Source of the DNA: a virus
Reading direction: 5' to 3' (one strand)
IMG/VR virus record: IMGVR_UViG_3300009163_000019
DNA length: 64,000 bases
Under the pieces are notes generated by a model. The model saw nothing but the letters and a program-made list of their open reading frames with translations, was not told the origin of the DNA and did not search any database. Both the position numbers and the translations under genes were made by a program. Below, one piece after another: positions 1-51,063 of this stretch (position 1 is its first letter; the number at the start of each line of letters is the position of its first letter).

Positions 1-102
1 ATTGATGAAGATGGTACAAAAATGTTTGAGTACATGGAACCTAAACAATCTGTACATTTAAAGCCTAAATATTATAAGTACTTTAACCAATATAATGACT
101 AA
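1..102 (+). CDS. 3' end of an upstream ORF (partial), probably part of the DNA-modification locus
   Basis: Frame 1 is open from base 1 (IDEDGTKMFEYMEPKQSVHLKPKYYKYFNQYND*); its TAA overlaps the ATG at 102. Confidence 0.7.
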   Translation: MDEDGTKMFEYMEPKQSVHLKPKYYKYFNQYND

Positions 103-1145
103 TGCAAAAATTTATAATTAACGAAAAACTTCTAGATGCATTAGATGAATATGATAAGCGAAGTCTACTAATGCAACAGCATGGTAGTTTAAAACTTCCG
201 TATCAAGGAGATCTATATAAAGATATAAATGATGATCTAATTTATCACGTACCTATTTATGATACTGCGCATCGTAGATTTGCTGCATTCTGTGCATTTA
301 CTGAAGCTATATGGTATAAAGAAAAAGATATAAGGGGAATGGGTAATCACTTTACCAATCATGATATTAAAGATGATTTTAATTGGTTCATGTTATTTTA
401 TTTATTTAGGTTGTGTGGTTCAGGAATTAATTATGTACCTAGATATAAAACAGATCATATCAAGGACATATTAGGAACGCATGGTTTCGGTAATTTTTGG
501 ATCGTAAATTCTATATTGAAAGAGCATTACACATGGCCAGAATGGAAGCAAGACCTTTATAATAGGATAACTCCATTTACAGATAATAAAGGTTATCTAC
601 TTCCACAATTTACATTTGAAGGTGAAACTAGAGGACACTTAAGAAGATTTATTCTTGATCATGCAGAAGGTTTAGTTAGACACATATATGAAGCTGTTAC
701 TACAAAAAGACTCGACATATATCAAGTAACTGATTTAGGTAATGAATATCTAAACAATATTGGATTTAAAAGACAGAATTTTGTTGTAACTGCATTTGCA
801 GCCGATTTAGCAGAGTATTTTCCACAGTACGTTAATCCTAAAGGTTGGGTATATGCTGGAACAAATGCAGTTCGTTGTATTAAAGCAATATTTCCTAAAG
901 TAAGTCCTAAAATAAAAGAGTTCGAATATATTAATGAAGTACTACAATTCTTATCAAATAGATATAACTTAAATCCTATTGATTGTGAAGATAGTAGAGC
1001 TTGTGACGTAGTAAGATATTTTCAAGAATATCAGTCCGAAGATCATATTATTAAAAACAATGGTAGAAGAATGTATAATAATTCAATTCTCAAACAAACG
1101 TGGGGTCATGATAAATACTATGACTTCGCAACTAAATTAAAATAA
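102..1145 (+). CDS. aGPT-Pplase (amino acid:DNA transferase)-like protein, HhH-glycosylase superfamily
   Basis: FVVTAFAADL...YAGTNAVRCI and C-terminal DCEDSRACDVVRY parallel the F..Y...DL / GPGA.RGL / E..LCE..KY motifs of aGPT-Pplase clade 1; lies next to a PLP enzyme and a TS homologue. Confidence 0.65.
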   Translation: MQKFIINEKLLDALDEYDKRSLLMQQHGSLKLPYQGDLYKDINDDLIYHVPIYDTAHRRFAAFCAFTEAIWYKEKDIRGMGNHFTNHDIKDDFNWFMLFYLFRLCGSGINYVPRYKTDHIKDILGTHGFGNFWIVNSILKEHYTWPEWKQDLYNRITPFTDNKGYLLPQFTFEGETRGHLRRFILDHAEGLVRHIYEAVTTKRLDIYQVTDLGNEYLNNIGFKRQNFVVTAFAADLAEYFPQYVNPKGWVYAGTNAVRCIKAIFPKVSPKIKEFEYINEVLQFLSNRYNLNPIDCEDSRACDVVRYFQEYQSEDHIIKNNGRRMYNNSILKQTWGHDKYYDFATKLK

Positions 1146-1154
1146 AACAAAAAA

Positions 1155-1838
1155 ATGAAAAAAATCACAATCATAGTAGTAGGTCTACTAGTAACATTAT
1201 TCAGTTGTAAAACAAAAAATGAAGACATTAAATTTGATAAAGCTGTAAAAATTCACCAAGGATCTTTTGCATTCTGTGGAGCATCAGCAGCAATTCCTAC
1301 TGGAAAAAAGATTATTGTTCAAGGAGTAGAATATGATGAAGGATGCGCTGTATGTCCTGTATTAACAGGTCCATCTATTTCTAATTTAGTAATGGAAGGT
1401 GTAAGCGGAACTTATGGAAAGTTTAATGTAAATAAAAACTTTCAAACTCCTGATGGAAGTGATACTACAGTATGGTCTTTATTTTGGTATTATGATTCAA
1501 CAACTACTGTACCACAATTTAATCCAGCAACTAAAGAGTGGGAATTTTTACCTCCTATAAATCGTTCGTTTATTGTAAATTTAGATTCTCCAAGTACGAG
1601 TGAAAGTAATATGTTTGCAATGCCAGGAGTTATCTTTGATACAACATCTACTGGTATTATATTAGCAAGAGTATATGGACCACTTAATGAAGCAGCAGTT
1701 CCATTACGTAAAGCAGTTCCTATTACATCTGGAATGAAATCTATTACTGCAGCTAAAGAAGGATTTCCATATCCAGTAGGAACCCCAGTGCCTATTATTG
1801 AATTAAGCAAAGAACTTCAAAAAGAAGAAAAAAAATAA
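1155..1838 (+). CDS. Lipoprotein of unknown function
   Basis: MKK + hydrophobic stretch + LFSC lipobox, followed by a Lys/acidic-rich segment. Confidence 0.6.
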   Translation: MKKITIIVVGLLVTLFSCKTKNEDIKFDKAVKIHQGSFAFCGASAAIPTGKKIIVQGVEYDEGCAVCPVLTGPSISNLVMEGVSGTYGKFNVNKNFQTPDGSDTTVWSLFWYYDSTTTVPQFNPATKEWEFLPPINRSFIVNLDSPSTSESNMFAMPGVIFDTTSTGIILARVYGPLNEAAVPLRKAVPITSGMKSITAAKEGFPYPVGTPVPIIELSKELQKEEKK

Positions 1839-1841
1839 CTA

Positions 1842-2729
1842 ATGTTTTTAAACAAAGCTACAGATCAATCAAATTTAGATATGTCAGATGGTAGAGATTT
1901 AAACTATTATCTTGAAATGACAAAAGACTATAAACATGATTTTCAGTTTGAATTAAAACAAGCAGAAGGTTATACTATAGTAGATGATGGAACATTTCAA
2001 TACGGAAGTAAAGCTAAAATGGCCGACTTCATGATTAGTCAAGTAAAAGAAGATACTTTAATTTATGTAGCGCCAAGAACAGGTTATGCTCCTTATTCAC
2101 TTACTTATCTTGCAAAAAAATATAATAAGAAGTTGATCCTGTTTATGCCAGCATCTAAAGAAGCATCAGAACACCAACTAAGAGTTATTGAAGATGGTGT
2201 GACTCCTATATTTTTAAAAACTCCTGCTATGCCAACTATTAATGGTTGGGCAAAAGATTTTGCAAAAAAAATTGGAGCGAAGTATTTACCATTTGGACTT
2301 AAACATGAACAAGTTGTAGCAGGGGGAGTAAGAATATTTCATGATGCATTTAAAGATAAAATAATTCCAAATATGTGGACTGTATTTTCTACAGGAGTTT
2401 TATCTAGAACATTACAAATCGCTCTACCTAATACAAATTTTAATGCTGTAGCAGTCGCAAGAAATGTGCAACCAGGTGAATTAGGTAGAGCTAAATTTTA
2501 TACACACCACAAAGACTTTCTAAAAAATGCTGAAACAGAAACTCCATTTGATTGTATAAAAACTTATGATGCAAAAGGTTGGGAATACATGAAAAAATAT
2601 GGACACTTAAAAGATTGGTTTTGGAATGTAGCTAGAAATATGCCAAAGCCAACAATTAAGCCAAGTGATATTGATTCTCAACGAGAGTGGGGCGATAAGT
2701 CTGATATTATTAAGTACTTAGGAGAATAG
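1842..2729 (+). CDS. Fold-type II PLP-dependent enzyme of phage DNA-hypermodification loci
   Basis: DDG.FQYGSKAK (PLP Lys), YVAPRTGYA, WTVFSTGVLSR Gly loop, YDAKGW. Confidence 0.75.
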   Translation: MFLNKATDQSNLDMSDGRDLNYYLEMTKDYKHDFQFELKQAEGYTIVDDGTFQYGSKAKMADFMISQVKEDTLIYVAPRTGYAPYSLTYLAKKYNKKLILFMPASKEASEHQLRVIEDGVTPIFLKTPAMPTINGWAKDFAKKIGAKYLPFGLKHEQVVAGGVRIFHDAFKDKIIPNMWTVFSTGVLSRTLQIALPNTNFNAVAVARNVQPGELGRAKFYTHHKDFLKNAETETPFDCIKTYDAKGWEYMKKYGHLKDWFWNVARNMPKPTIKPSDIDSQREWGDKSDIIKYLGE

Positions 2730-2765
2730 TTTTATTAGATTAATAAATTTAATTATATTTACTTT

Positions 2766-3071
2766 ATGAATATATTAGAACAAGCAAATGAGATCATTTA
2801 TAAAAGAAATGAAGAAAAAGCTAGACAGTATGGACCAATGCAAGAAGGCATGCAAGAAGCGGCTAAGATAGCCTCTCTATTGTCTCACAAAGAAATTACT
2901 GCTGTAGATATGTACAATTGTATGATAGCCTTAAAACTATCTAGACAAGCATATAATCATAAAGAAGACAATTTGCTAGATGCAGTTGCATACATGGCAT
3001 CATTAAACGATTATCAAAATAATTTACAAAATGAAAATTCTAAAGACGAGAGACGTAAAGACACCAAGTAG
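2766..3071 (+). CDS. DUF6378-like all-helical protein (possible nucleotide pyrophosphohydrolase)
   Basis: IL.QA..II..R...YG, MIALKLSR...HKEDNLLDAVAY. Confidence 0.6.
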   Translation: MNILEQANEIIYKRNEEKARQYGPMQEGMQEAAKIASLLSHKEITAVDMYNCMIALKLSRQAYNHKEDNLLDAVAYMASLNDYQNNLQNENSKDERRKDTK

Positions 3072-3459
3072 AGGAACATCTGAAAGTGCTGGTATAGATT
3101 TTTATGTGCCTAATGATTTTGAAGATGTAGTATTACAACCAGGAGAATCAGTATTAATTCCATCAGGAATTAAAGCTCAAGTTCCAAGAGGAAATGCATT
3201 AATTGCATTTAATAAATCTGGAGTTGCTACTAAACAAGGTCTTATGGTTGGAGCTTGTGTAGTTGATGAAGACTATGAAGGAATTATACATCTTCATATG
3301 ACAAATACATCAAATAAAGAACAGCTTATAAAATCAGGACAGAAACTAGTACAATTTATTTTACTACCTGTAAACTATTCTGAAGTACAAGAAGTACATG
3401 AATTACAATCTAGAAATACAGAAAGAGGATCCGGAGGATTTGGATCAACAGGACTTTAA
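3031..3459 (+). CDS. dut: Trimeric dUTPase
   Basis: SAGIDF, KSG, VVDEDYEG, QFIL, RGSGGFGSTG motifs. Confidence 0.95.
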   Translation: MKILKTRDVKTPSRGTSESAGIDFYVPNDFEDVVLQPGESVLIPSGIKAQVPRGNALIAFNKSGVATKQGLMVGACVVDEDYEGIIHLHMTNTSNKEQLIKSGQKLVQFILLPVNYSEVQEVHELQSRNTERGSGGFGSTGL

Positions 3460-3473
3460 AATTATAAATCATC

Positions 3474-3686
3474 ATGCTTGAATTCAAACATCCAATACCA
3501 GTAATAGTAGAAGGAGGAAAAGAGGGGTATGCTATTTATGTTGTTAATGGTGGAACATTTGAAAATGATATATGGTGTATTGTATTATGTGAAGGTGGTA
3601 CAGTTAGACATTATAGAAGTGATCAAATTAAAATGCATCATAATTCAACTTTAGATTTATCAAAAGATGAAAAAAATAATAAATAA
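3474..3686 (+). CDS. Hypothetical protein
   Basis: Co-oriented ORF in the operon. Confidence 0.6.
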   Translation: MLEFKHPIPVIVEGGKEGYAIYVVNGGTFENDIWCIVLCEGGTVRHYRSDQIKMHHNSTLDLSKDEKNNK

Positions 3687-3897
3687 ATTTGGTCTAGAAT
3701 TAGAAATTGGAGACAAATTATTAATAATAACAGATAGGATAGACGATAAAATGTTAGCAAATGTTAGCCTAAATGAAATAATAACAATAACTGGATTCTC
3801 TGATAATGAAAAAATAATGTATCATCATAATTCTTTAGCATTACCTGTAGATTGTAATATTTACAAAAAATTAGAGGGTGATAAAAATAATGAATAA
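3667..3897 (+). CDS. Hypothetical protein
   Basis: Overlapping co-oriented ORF. Confidence 0.55.
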   Translation: MKKIINKFGLELEIGDKLLIITDRIDDKMLANVSLNEIITITGFSDNEKIMYHHNSLALPVDCNIYKKLEGDKNNE

Positions 3898-4291
3898 ATT
3901 AGATAAAGTATTTATTAATATAGCAAAGGAAACATCTACTCTGTCACACTGCGTTCGATCTAAGGTCGGCGCAGTTTTAGTTAAAAGTGGAAATATAATT
4001 TCTTTTGGCTATAATGGAACTCCTGCAGGAATGAATAATGAGTGTGAAGAAAATGATGTTACTCTATCTCATGTTATACATGCTGAAGTAAATGCTATTC
4101 TTAAAGCGGCAAAAACAGGAAACTCTGTAGATGGATCTACTTTGTATCTAACTCTTTCACCATGTTTAGACTGCTCTAAACTTATTTTGCAATCAGGAAT
4201 TAAAAAAGTTGTATATTTAACTAACTATCGTAATCTTGAAGGCGTAGATTTTCTTAAACAATTTATAGAAGTAGAACAATATGGAGAATAA
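3878..4291 (+). CDS. dCMP deaminase (probable start 3890)
   Basis: VGAVLV, GYNGTP, HAEVNA, PCLDC zinc motifs. Confidence 0.92.
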   Translation: MIKIMNKLDKVFINIAKETSTLSHCVRSKVGAVLVKSGNIISFGYNGTPAGMNNECEENDVTLSHVIHAEVNAILKAAKTGNSVDGSTLYLTLSPCLDCSKLILQSGIKKVVYLTNYRNLEGVDFLKQFIEVEQYGE

Positions 4292-4925
4292 AATATATAA
4301 AACACCGACTATAGCATTTGAATATCTTTATCATTATATATTAGGTAAAGGTGAAGACTTTGCTGGTACTAAAGCTATATTCAATTCAGTATTTAGTATA
4401 CAAGATCCAACACAAAAAGTAATTGAAACTCCTAAACGTAAGTTTAATAAAGACTATGCTGACTATGAATGGGATTGGTATGTAAAAGGTGATAGAGACG
4501 CAAGTGAAATAGCAGAGAGAGCAAAGATCTGGAAACAAATGATGGTTCCATTTACTACAGAAGTAAATTCCAATTACGGATACTTTTGGAATTATAATGA
4601 TCAGCTTAAAAGAGTTATTGATGAACTAAAAAGAAATAAAGAAACACGTCGTGCAATTGTTGTACATTACATATTACATGAATTAGATAGATATCAATAC
4701 GATACTCCATGTAATGATGTACTTAATTTTTATATTAAAGATAATAAATTACAATTAACAGTATTTGCAAGATCTATAGACTTAGTTTACGGATTTTGTA
4801 ATGATCAATATACCTTTGCAAAGCTAATGGAATTAGTATCAGAAAAAACTGGTTATCCCGTTGGTGAAATGCACTGGATGATAACTAATCTTCATATATA
4901 TCCAAGACATTACGATTTATTATGA
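4281..4925 (+). CDS. Thymidylate synthase-family enzyme, probably a dCMP hydroxymethylase
   Basis: NSNYG, TRRA, DTPC (catalytic Cys), RSIDLVYGFCND, NLHIY; Asp at the E. coli ThyA Asn177-equivalent position. Confidence 0.85.
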   Translation: MENKIYKTPTIAFEYLYHYILGKGEDFAGTKAIFNSVFSIQDPTQKVIETPKRKFNKDYADYEWDWYVKGDRDASEIAERAKIWKQMMVPFTTEVNSNYGYFWNYNDQLKRVIDELKRNKETRRAIVVHYILHELDRYQYDTPCNDVLNFYIKDNKLQLTVFARSIDLVYGFCNDQYTFAKLMELVSEKTGYPVGEMHWMITNLHIYPRHYDLL

Positions 4926-10842: not shown

Positions 10843-10855
10843 GTTCTTTAACTTA
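10843..10855 (+). promoter_or_regulatory. boxA-like motif upstream of tmRNA
   Basis: GTTCTTTAACTTA resembles rrn boxA and ends 1 nt before the tmRNA 5' end. Confidence 0.5.
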
Positions 10856-10856
10856 T

Positions 10857-11252
10857 GGGGATAACCGGTATCGATCTGAATGATGAGATAATACCACATG
10901 CAGGCGTTTGGTAGAGTCGCCTTAGAAAACTGCAAACAATAACTGACGAAATGTCAACAATGACCTTCGAAGACTTAATGTCTTTCGTAGGCGCTGATTA
11001 CGCTCTAGCAGCCTAGTCCGCATCGGGTGGTAGAGAACCTAGGAACAGAACACAACAGCGAGTCATACGCTAAAGAGATGGCATCCGGACGCATATTGCG
11101 AGCCGTAGTTTTCTTGATAGTCATAAAATCAAGTGGTGGAAACGACCATAAAGGTCAGCCCTTACTGATCAAAAGCAATTTAGATCTAAGCATGTGAGAC
11201 GTTGGTGTTATTATCACTTTTAGAGACGTGGGTTCGAATCCCACTATCTCCA
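10857..11252 (+). ncRNA. ssrA: tmRNA
   Basis: GGGGATA/TATCTCC-A acceptor stem with G3.U Ala determinant; GTGGG-TTCGAAT-CCCAC T-arm; tag ORF 10945-11016 DEMSTMTFEDLMSFVGADYALAA* after the ATAACT resume context. Confidence 0.95.
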
Positions 11253-11321
11253 CTTAAAATATATATTTTTATTATCTTAAATTTATTTGTACATTTAATT
11301 AATAATCAAAACAAATAAAAA

Positions 11322-11512: not shown

Positions 11513-11607
11513 AACACAGAAACCATAATATAGCGTTAAAATAAGGAGGCGTGGTTGCCGAGTCGCAAGCTATGCGAGCGTATGAGGTTCGATTCCTCTC
11601 TGTGTTC
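11513..11607 (+). ncRNA. tRNA-like RNA (8-bp acceptor stem, 4-bp T-stem, non-canonical arms)
   Basis: AACACAGA/TCTGTGTT; GAGG-TTCGATT-CCTC; internal stems AACCA/TGGTT and TCGCA/TGCGA. Confidence 0.6.
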
Positions 11608-11859: not shown

Positions 11860-12014
11860 TGTCGGGTGGTGAAAAGCGTACGCACGGTAGACACACCCTC
11901 TCGTCTCGAGGGCGCTGAATTTGAAATAGGTAATTGGATATGGGTTGACCACAAAGCCGGCTATTTTGTCCACTACCGAATCACAGCGTGAAGGTTCAAA
12001 TCCTTCCTCGACAG
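11860..12014 (+). tRNA. Atypical tRNA-like RNA with GUC at the anticodon position and a 77-nt variable arm
   Basis: TGTCGGG/CTCGACA acceptor; GTG...GGTAGA-CAC D-arm; CCCTC-TCGTCTC-GAGGG; CGCTG...CAGCG arm; GAAGG-TTCAAAT-CCTTC. Confidence 0.75.
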
Positions 12015-12016
12015 CA

Positions 12017-12337
12017 AGTTATCGTTCTTTGACATATAAGGAGAAATAAAATATGGAAACACTATCATTCGTTTTAGGGATAGCATTCATTGTGGTTATA
12101 GCTTTAGCTATAGTTGCTACTTATGCTTTCGTTAAAGTAATAAAAGTACAAAAAGAAATCAATGATCTAGACAGAAGATTTGCAGACATCTATCAGTGTA
12201 TTGCTGAAGAGAATGCTCAGATTAATCGGAGAGTCGATGATTTTGAAAAAGAGATATTCTCTCAGTTAGATTCAAGATTAGATAAGTTAGAAAATAAATT
12301 AATAATTAAAAAATAAATAAGTTAAAGAACGATAACT
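12017..12337 (+). repeat. 17-bp inverted repeat (boxA-like arm) enclosing ORF 12053-12316
   Basis: AGTTATCGTTCTTTGAC (12017-12033) pairs with GTTAAAGAACGATAACT (12321-12337): 16 WC + 1 G.U. Confidence 0.8.
12053..12316 (+). CDS. N-terminal TM + coiled-coil protein
   Basis: TM helix then heptads; AAGGAG SD upstream. Confidence 0.7.
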   Translation: METLSFVLGIAFIVVIALAIVATYAFVKVIKVQKEINDLDRRFADIYQCIAEENAQINRRVDDFEKEIFSQLDSRLDKLENKLIIKK

Positions 12338-50915: not shown

Positions 50916-51000
50916 AGTCAGGTAGCGGAAATGGTAGACGCATGCATCCCGTAAGATTTGCATTCCACTGAGATTACTGGTTCGACTCCAGTCCTGACTA
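50916..51000 (+). tRNA. Atypical tRNA / tRNA-like RNA (GTA in a distorted anticodon arm)
   Basis: AGTCAGG/CCTGACT-A acceptor; GCG-GAAATGGTAGA-CGC D-arm; ACTGG-TTCGACT-CCAGT T-arm. Confidence 0.75.
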
Positions 51001-51063
51001 CTCTGGATTTAAATAGCTTCCATCTCATGGGGATTTAGTATATTTAATAAATAAATAAAGGTT

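Follow-up and report, generated by a model that had tools for sequence, protein, structure and literature searches.

The staphylococcal non-proteinogenic tRNA-Gly is a tRNA of normal size that serves chemistry away from the ribosome; its T stem binds EF-Tu weakly and it donates its amino acid, unchanged, to the cell wall. In the chemistry of aspartate and asparagine, the strong aspartate determinants of tRNA are G34, U35, C36, C38 and G73, and for amidation GatCAB requires U1-A72 (PMC9976931), a pair also reported as a GatCAB determinant in PMC1635274. An engineered tRNA combining the aspartate anticodon (GUC) with U1-A72 was amidated nearly like tRNA-Asn if it lacked base 20a, a GatCAB antideterminant of class I tRNAs with a cost of about 7-fold in tRNA-Asn (PMC1635274). 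Genomes that hold AsnRS, GlnRS and GatCAB without an asparagine synthetase have been flagged as a puzzle of the Bacteroidetes, for which a single relaxed AspRS that charges tRNA-Asn, an arrangement tested in Bdellovibrio and Legionella, was predicted (PMC4206432). Lastly, the allo-tRNAs and selC* tRNAs of bacteria and phages are non-canonical and long-armed, with an 8/4 or 9/3 division of acceptor and T stems and frequently a GUC anticodon (PMC5389517, PMC7609411); the allo-tRNA paper PMC5389517 does not mention Bacteroidota.

Here we describe a 155-nt tRNA-like RNA gene at positions 11860-12014 of a 64,000-nt window, the whole stretch of DNA that was analysed (the gene, its parts and the other tRNA-type modules below lie on the + strand). 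The window is part of a single 136-kb virus contig of low GC, with nearly all genes on the same strand and T4-like portal, capsid, sheath and baseplate genes. The gene scored 70.4 bits (E 1.3e-16) on the family model R1 and was measured up to its discriminator, G73 at 12014; CCA is not encoded, as C74 is present and followed by AA. The acceptor stem (11860-11866/12007-12013) includes U1-A72, G2-C71 and U3-A70, and its 3′ strand with G73 and C74 spans 12007-12015. The D arm (11869-11894) is of class II (Leu-type), with a 3-bp stem and a loop enlarged to 20 nt that contains the self-complementary insert GCGTACGC at 11876-11883. The anticodon arm (11896-11912; stem 11896-11900/11908-11912) carries the loop U32 C33 G34 U35 C36 U37 C38 at 11901-11907, in which the AspRS identity bases are retained and the decoding context is lost. 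The T arm (11990-12006) is normal and has an A51-U63 pair, the T-stem type with weak EF-Tu binding. All of the features named in an initial annotation of this DNA were found where it had placed them, among them C33 and U37 replacing U33 and purine 37, the D loop enlarged by GCGTACGC, and intact acceptor, anticodon and T stems, the last confirmed both by their coordinates and by conserved cloverleaf pairing.

The variable arm fills 11913-11989 and has the 77 nt first given for it. It had been described as an irregular hairpin, a description that we revise, for covariation among 42 long-arm members resolves an ordered domain of stacked helices, a bulge, an internal loop and an apex motif. A 4-bp basal helix, P1 (11914-11917/11984-11987), is followed by a 4-nt bulge, the 3-bp P2 (11922-11924/11981-11983), an A-rich internal loop (11925-11928/11978-11980), which we liken to the UAA/GAN motif, and the 11-bp helix P3 (11929-11940/11967-11977). 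Above these lie a near-invariant apex motif, GG-RUWGA-CC-AC (11942-11952), shared with cellular long-arm copies and present in 78 viral and 23 cellular members, and a self-complementary octamer (11955-11962) that is a candidate dimerisation site. The proposed closing helix CGCTG/CAGCG holds for four of its five pairs, which are conserved, and its outer C-G is often open in relatives. The possibility that the anticodon pairs with the apex GAC or with the D loop was considered and rejected, there being no covariation support (the bases are invariant).

A T-arm scan of the whole 136-kb contig found four tRNA-type modules, namely a tmRNA, a 95-nt element, the 155-nt RNA and an odd 86-nt tRNA, and no canonical tRNA. 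The tmRNA (10857-11253) encodes a long tag of 23-24 residues ending in YALAA and has near kin in four lake metatranscriptomes. The 95-nt element (11513-11607) has a 7-bp acceptor and a T arm without a normal D or anticodon arm; neither ARAGORN nor Rfam called it and it had no close homologue in the loci examined. The 86-nt gene (50916-51001) combines A1-U72 with a class II D arm, and its anticodon arm is unreadable. BoxA-like motifs lie on both sides of the RNA cluster (10843-10855 and 12024-12035). The second sits just 3′ of the RNA and is likely transcriptional context, outside the RNA itself; 12/121 viral loci have such a motif no more than 40 nt away from the RNA. A sigma-70 scan performed no better than chance. 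A structured non-coding stretch starting GAACACAG recurs just 3′ of the RNA in other phage loci (L017, L027, L036, L037, L046, L048 and L052). Elsewhere in the window, a large sugar-nucleotide and glycosyltransferase cluster (14283-37460 and 102-4925) is accompanied by thymidylate synthase, dCMP deaminase and dUTPase genes. A tblastn search of the phage contig, which may be incomplete, found no homologue of AspRS, AsnC or mini-AsnRS, and no Gat or synthetase family was among its top 25 Pfam families (one 1456-aa ORF lay outside the scan). The host of the phage probably belongs to the Bacteroidota, judging by the cellular relatives of the RNA and by the tag end YALAA, which we take to point to that phylum.

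The family to which the RNA belongs comprises at least 120 viral and at least 89 bacterial loci. Pattern scans recovered the exact apex 20-mer in 51 viral contigs and the body pattern in at least 118 viral and at least 120 bacterial stretches; parsing of the listed matches yielded 121 viral and 122 cellular distinct members (243). The first exact pattern overlooked most cellular members (3/301), and a covariance model and a T-arm pattern were then used. A whole-genome model search scored 26 candidates per genome and overlooked long-arm copies, and absences therefore rest on the pattern. Moreover, since the anticodon loop was fixed in the first patterns, the search was repeated without the loop, yielding 31 cellular members. 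No Rfam covariance model, RF00005 included, matched the RNA even at E 10, and a blastn search with the 155-mer found nothing among cultured phage genomes. We found no description of the family in the literature searched, which lay outside subscription papers. The RNA is one of a real, conserved and apparently undescribed family of tRNA-like RNAs. We place it outside tRNA-Asp, the allo-tRNAs and every Rfam family, because the defining features of these are missing from it.

The folding energy of the RNA is not above chance (z -1.31). Conservation of pairing is nevertheless extensive across members: cloverleaf pairs form in 99.1% of alignment cells with double changes at 20/24 pairs, and long-arm pairs in 95.6% with double changes at 14/20, the covariation that had been proposed as a check on the arm. 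For both cloverleaf and long arm, 0/500 shuffles matched the paired fraction or the covariation score and slid controls collapsed, though both kinds of control leave relatedness among members in place. The arm, conserved and covarying, thus looks like the displayed RNA domain that had been suggested. Throughout the family its length ranges from 6 to >100 nt above one conserved basal helix. This speaks, in line with the early reading, for a variable arm and against an intron, and it makes the giant arm an accessory rather than the part that defines the family. In some members (L524:1501-1577, L294, L296 and L373) the variable arm is all but lost (6-7 nt) and the loop reads AUC or GUU. A further short-arm member (L220, locus 2615-2709, -) comes from a GC-rich, non-Bacteroidota-looking genome with gatB and no adjoining asnC.

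As to identity bases, the initial annotation had overlooked that the GUC loop is more than ornament: with G73 and U1-A72 it forms the identity set that the family conserves best. Among the distinct members, found with a query that specified neither, G73 and C74 occur in 243/243 and U1-A72 in 239/243. Pair 51-63 is either A-U or U-A in 236/243, and G-C does not occur there. Among the 31 cellular members from the loop-free search, U35, C36 and C38 are invariant (31/31), G34 is found in 26/31 and U37 in 28/31, and at position 33 U, G and C all occur. With bacterial tRNA-Asp the RNA shares G34, U35, C36, C38, G73, G10 and G2-C71. Unlike it, the RNA has U1-A72 in place of G1-C72, a class II D arm and a long arm, and it lacks U33, purine 37 and G51-C63. 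A decoding tRNA-Asp is thus matched in GUC, C38 and G73, and U33, purine 37, G1-C72 and the class I variable loop are all missing, which supports the early view that this is probably not one. The tRNA-Asn of the indirect pathway (PMC1635274, PMC4206432) resembles the RNA in U1-A72, G73 and a weak 51-63 pair, and the hosts of the RNA have gatB and mostly no true AsnA or AsnB; the RNA differs from it in having GUC and not GUU, a class II body, a long arm and a non-decoding loop, and in being a separate gene, placed in an AsnC slot, whose product would be barred from the ribosome. From class II tRNAs for Leu, Ser and Tyr (RF00005) it takes the 3-bp D stem, the D-loop pattern, a stemmed variable arm and the 7/5 branch, but it combines G73 with an Asp loop and has an arm up to ten times longer. 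The resemblance to allo-tRNAs and selC* tRNAs extends to the long arm, non-canonical character, frequent GUC and occurrence in bacteria and phages; however, the branch is 7/5 and not 8/4 or 9/3. Because the bases for AspRS and GatCAB are retained whilst U33 and purine 37 are lost, the family keeps the features that enzymes read and drops those that the ribosome needs. The class II D loop of the family does include A20a, whereas a GatCAB substrate would be expected to have no extra base at that position.

The initial annotation had also overlooked that the phage RNA is a copy of a family that is cellular in Bacteroidota and linked there with AsnC and GatCAB. A divergent AsnC-type (Lrp-family) gene faces the RNA in 72/80 informative cellular loci, in several orders. 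Its best matches are to E. coli AsnC (PDB 2CG4, E 8.5e-38; 180 bits on the NCBIfam AsnC model vs 48 for Lrp), its score falls short of the NCBIfam AsnC equivalog cut-off (227), and its ligand-pocket residues were compared by alignment only. E. coli AsnC activates the divergent asnA gene (see the works cited in PMC2504300). Across 150 phylum-wide genomes, 16 have the AsnC type and 15 of these have the RNA, which was found in none of the other 134; the exception (G021) has the AsnC type, a true AsnB and no gatB. In another genome (G490) the RNA was not found, and opposite the regulator (69.6% identical), 150 nt away, lies a true asnB; this swap is one case among the 20 asnA/asnB regions read. 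In a third (G111), a more distant AsnC-like gene lies in the equivalent place beside an asnA/asnB region. The RNA thus sits in a bacterial slot otherwise held by an asparagine-making enzyme and therefore probably helps to make asparagine; its exchange with asnB in that slot suggests a biosynthetic output.

Moreover, among 226 Bacteroidia genomes gatB is present in 41/41 carriers of the RNA and 0/58 gatB-negative genomes carry it (Fisher 1.8e-6, without correction for phylogeny, so that shared descent confounds presence and absence). Here 15 new class-level loci were confirmed with the family model and most other carriers were called from a matched 23-mer alone; one non-carrier in the gatB count (G427) is an unpublished genome on which no conclusion rests. 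True AsnB was found in 1/41 carriers vs 31/185 non-carriers, using NF006949 and gene context because PF00733 cannot separate AsnB from sugar amidotransferases. AsnB-like (PF00733) genes were present in 37/50 carriers and absent from 13/50; the three scanned all pass TIGR01536, and in the 18 regions read such genes lie mostly among glycosyltransferases, epimerases and polysaccharide export genes. Counter-examples are an AsnB-like gene beside amt and glnII (G003) and a true AsnB (G537). In small samples, carriers have AsnRS (5/5) and GlnRS (4/6), and gatB-positive non-carriers lack GlnRS (4/4). In the four carriers with both synthetases GatCAB would thus have no translational job, whereas the missing GlnRS gives the GatCAB of non-carriers another job. 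The RNA is not needed universally, for it went undetected in about 127 gatB-positive Bacteroidia whose gene sets are of the AsnRS type; in five of these that were checked the AspRS signature is the same as in carriers. The His/Gly AspRS signature marks non-discriminating enzymes. As a marker it was discarded, being missing in carriers and also in Bacteroidia non-carriers. One carrier MAG (G002) has a 1076-aa open frame that matches GatB and AspRS, an apparent fusion or possible contamination (G002:C6:552447-555711), as well as stand-alone GatB and AspRS copies.

A second association comes from marine phages. The annotated tRNA-Asn of Prochlorococcus phage P-SSM2 (GU071092.1) is a relative of the family (74.9 bits on the family model). 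It is alike in U1-A72, G73, class II body and U37, and unlike in its GUU loop, its short arm and the preceding AsnRS-like gene without an anticodon domain. Such an AsnRS/AspRS-like catalytic core has a relative of the RNA directly behind it in 71/71 informative marine-phage loci (65 parsed and 6 read by eye), examples being L580:193-1028, L344:3172-4039, L088:11600-12558 and L120:1700-2713. Two GUC members also lie behind an AsnRS-like core gene. The core has >8000 homologues and its fold is closest to AsnRS and AspRS. Through this module the wider family is connected with Asx chemistry by a route that does not involve AsnC.

Taken together, some link of the RNA to Asp/Asn metabolism is likely. 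More specifically, on sequence grounds we hypothesise, with a probability of roughly 0.5, that the RNA is the phage copy of a Bacteroidota non-decoding, off-ribosome carrier that turns aspartate into asparagine. Under this hypothesis the host would make the RNA under AsnC control at low asparagine. After trimming and CCA completion, an ordinary AspRS would charge it with aspartate through GUC, C38 and G73, and GatCAB, reading U1-A72, would amidate that aspartate. The abnormal anticodon loop, the weak T stem and the bulk of the arm would keep the RNA off the ribosome, so that no Asp-to-Asn mistranslation would follow, and asparagine would be released for AsnRS. Unlike the staphylococcal tRNA-Gly, which hands on its amino acid unchanged, the RNA would convert the one that it bears. 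A phage copy would draw on the host's enzymes to raise the supply of asparagine, perhaps in dimeric form, bound to both sites of the dimeric AspRS. More tentative is the full reading, which we hold at somewhat less than even odds, of a dedicated RNA cofactor that replaces asparagine synthetase, yielding free asparagine away from the ribosome via a discriminating AspRS and GatCAB, is controlled by AsnC as asnA is, and was captured by phages as a self-dimerising auxiliary metabolic RNA. Base 20a and the position of the phage insert, at the elbow, a presumed contact of GatB, count against a carrier, as does the fact that G34 is not invariant (26/31). A relaxed AspRS that charges tRNA-Asn stands as an objection to an asparagine carrier, but does not explain why the RNA lies beside asnC and tracks gatB.

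The same identity bases and the same link to AsnC would be expected of an RNA that binds AspRS, or AspRS and GatCAB, without turnover, acting as a decoy that tunes Asp/Asn flux or as a scaffold that holds a transamidosome. Base 20a, the D-loop insert and palindromes restricted to phages, and the multiple tandem copies in some cells all fit such a role, and the phage copy, with two extra self-complementary loops, might be a multivalent sponge. However, the intact acceptor end (U1-A72, G73, C74) is conserved as tightly as the loop, and the exchange with asnB beside AsnC points to an output in biosynthesis; we regard this explanation as the main rival of a carrier, and as less likely overall. It is more plausible for the phage than for the cellular copy, and may hold for the former even with a carrier in cells. 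A decoy of another kind, a nuclease-resistant or sacrificial mimic of tRNA-Asp directed against host anticodon nucleases, would account for the altered anticodon loop and for the frequency of the RNA in phage tRNA clusters, and phage tRNAs that evade nucleases have precedent. It is improbable, given that the family is chromosomal in hosts and, in the loci read, associated with AsnC and gatB rather than with defence genes, and it leaves U1-A72 unexplained.

The remaining explanations return the RNA to translation. Were SerRS to read the long arm and G73, and the ribosome GUC, the RNA would be a serine-charged missense adaptor like an allo-tRNA; the long arm, G73, G2-C71 and R4-Y69 are Ser determinants. 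Yet the single unpaired base 3′ of the arm gives the Leu-type orientation, C38 is needless for SerRS and U33 is lost. GUC is common among allo-tRNAs (PMC5389517), but the branch is 7/5, not 8/4 or 9/3, and base 72 is A and not C, so that we find such an adaptor very improbable. An unusual but working tRNA-Asp, which GUC, C38 and G73 might suggest and to which ARAGORN assigns 11 short viral members, is more doubtful still: the RNA has C33 and U37, U37 recurs in 120/126 unbiased members, position 34 varies, G1-C72 is absent and U1-A72 would risk Asn at Asp codons. Moreover, a canonical tRNA-Asp is present alongside in nine viral loci of the family, so the RNA is not its substitute. Least credible is an intron in the variable region that is spliced out to leave a normal tRNA. 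ARAGORN made no call for the 155-nt RNA by default, and only a relaxed run of this proposed check returned a call, by forcing an intron model. Against an intron, arm lengths are continuous from 6 to >100 nt on one conserved basal helix and the anticodon loop would still be abnormal after excision. Metatranscriptome contigs mostly represent the tmRNA; for the RNA gene there is one 32-nt match from a relative (depth 3.6), and the RNA contigs, which barely cover the gene, include no spliced joint. A relative is represented in a lake RNA library by one contig that keeps the arm joined to both flanking arms, a weak sign read from contigs.

Returning to the phage copies, the D-loop insert occurs in viral copies only (0/122 cellular members). 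A palindrome of at least 6 is present in 30/50 distinct inserts, a count made without a shuffle control and to which hairpins contribute. For the insert studied here, the duplex is predicted to be by far the more stable form (-16.2 kcal/mol vs -0.8 for the hairpin), and likewise for the apex octamer (-16.9 vs 0 kcal/mol). Viral arm tails have palindromes of at least 6 in 24/27 distinct cases vs 4.5 in shuffles (max 12), and cellular tails in 5/9 vs 3.9. The two palindromes, in D loop and arm apex, do not match one another in cis. The simplest reading is a homodimer formed through the palindromic phage loops, analogous to retroviral dimerisation sites; the palindromes may also have a DNA-level cause.

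Even if the mechanism differs from that proposed here, these RNAs form a large uncatalogued tRNA-like family, found in ~18% of sampled Bacteroidia genomes and overlooked or mislabelled by annotation tools. That their variable arm tolerates structured inserts of 100 nt is relevant to tRNA engineering. If the carrier hypothesis is true, an RNA gene would stand in place of a metabolic enzyme gene, providing a third route to asparagine in bacteria with AsnRS, GlnRS and GatCAB and no true asparagine synthetase, and the phage copy would be an auxiliary metabolic gene made of RNA.
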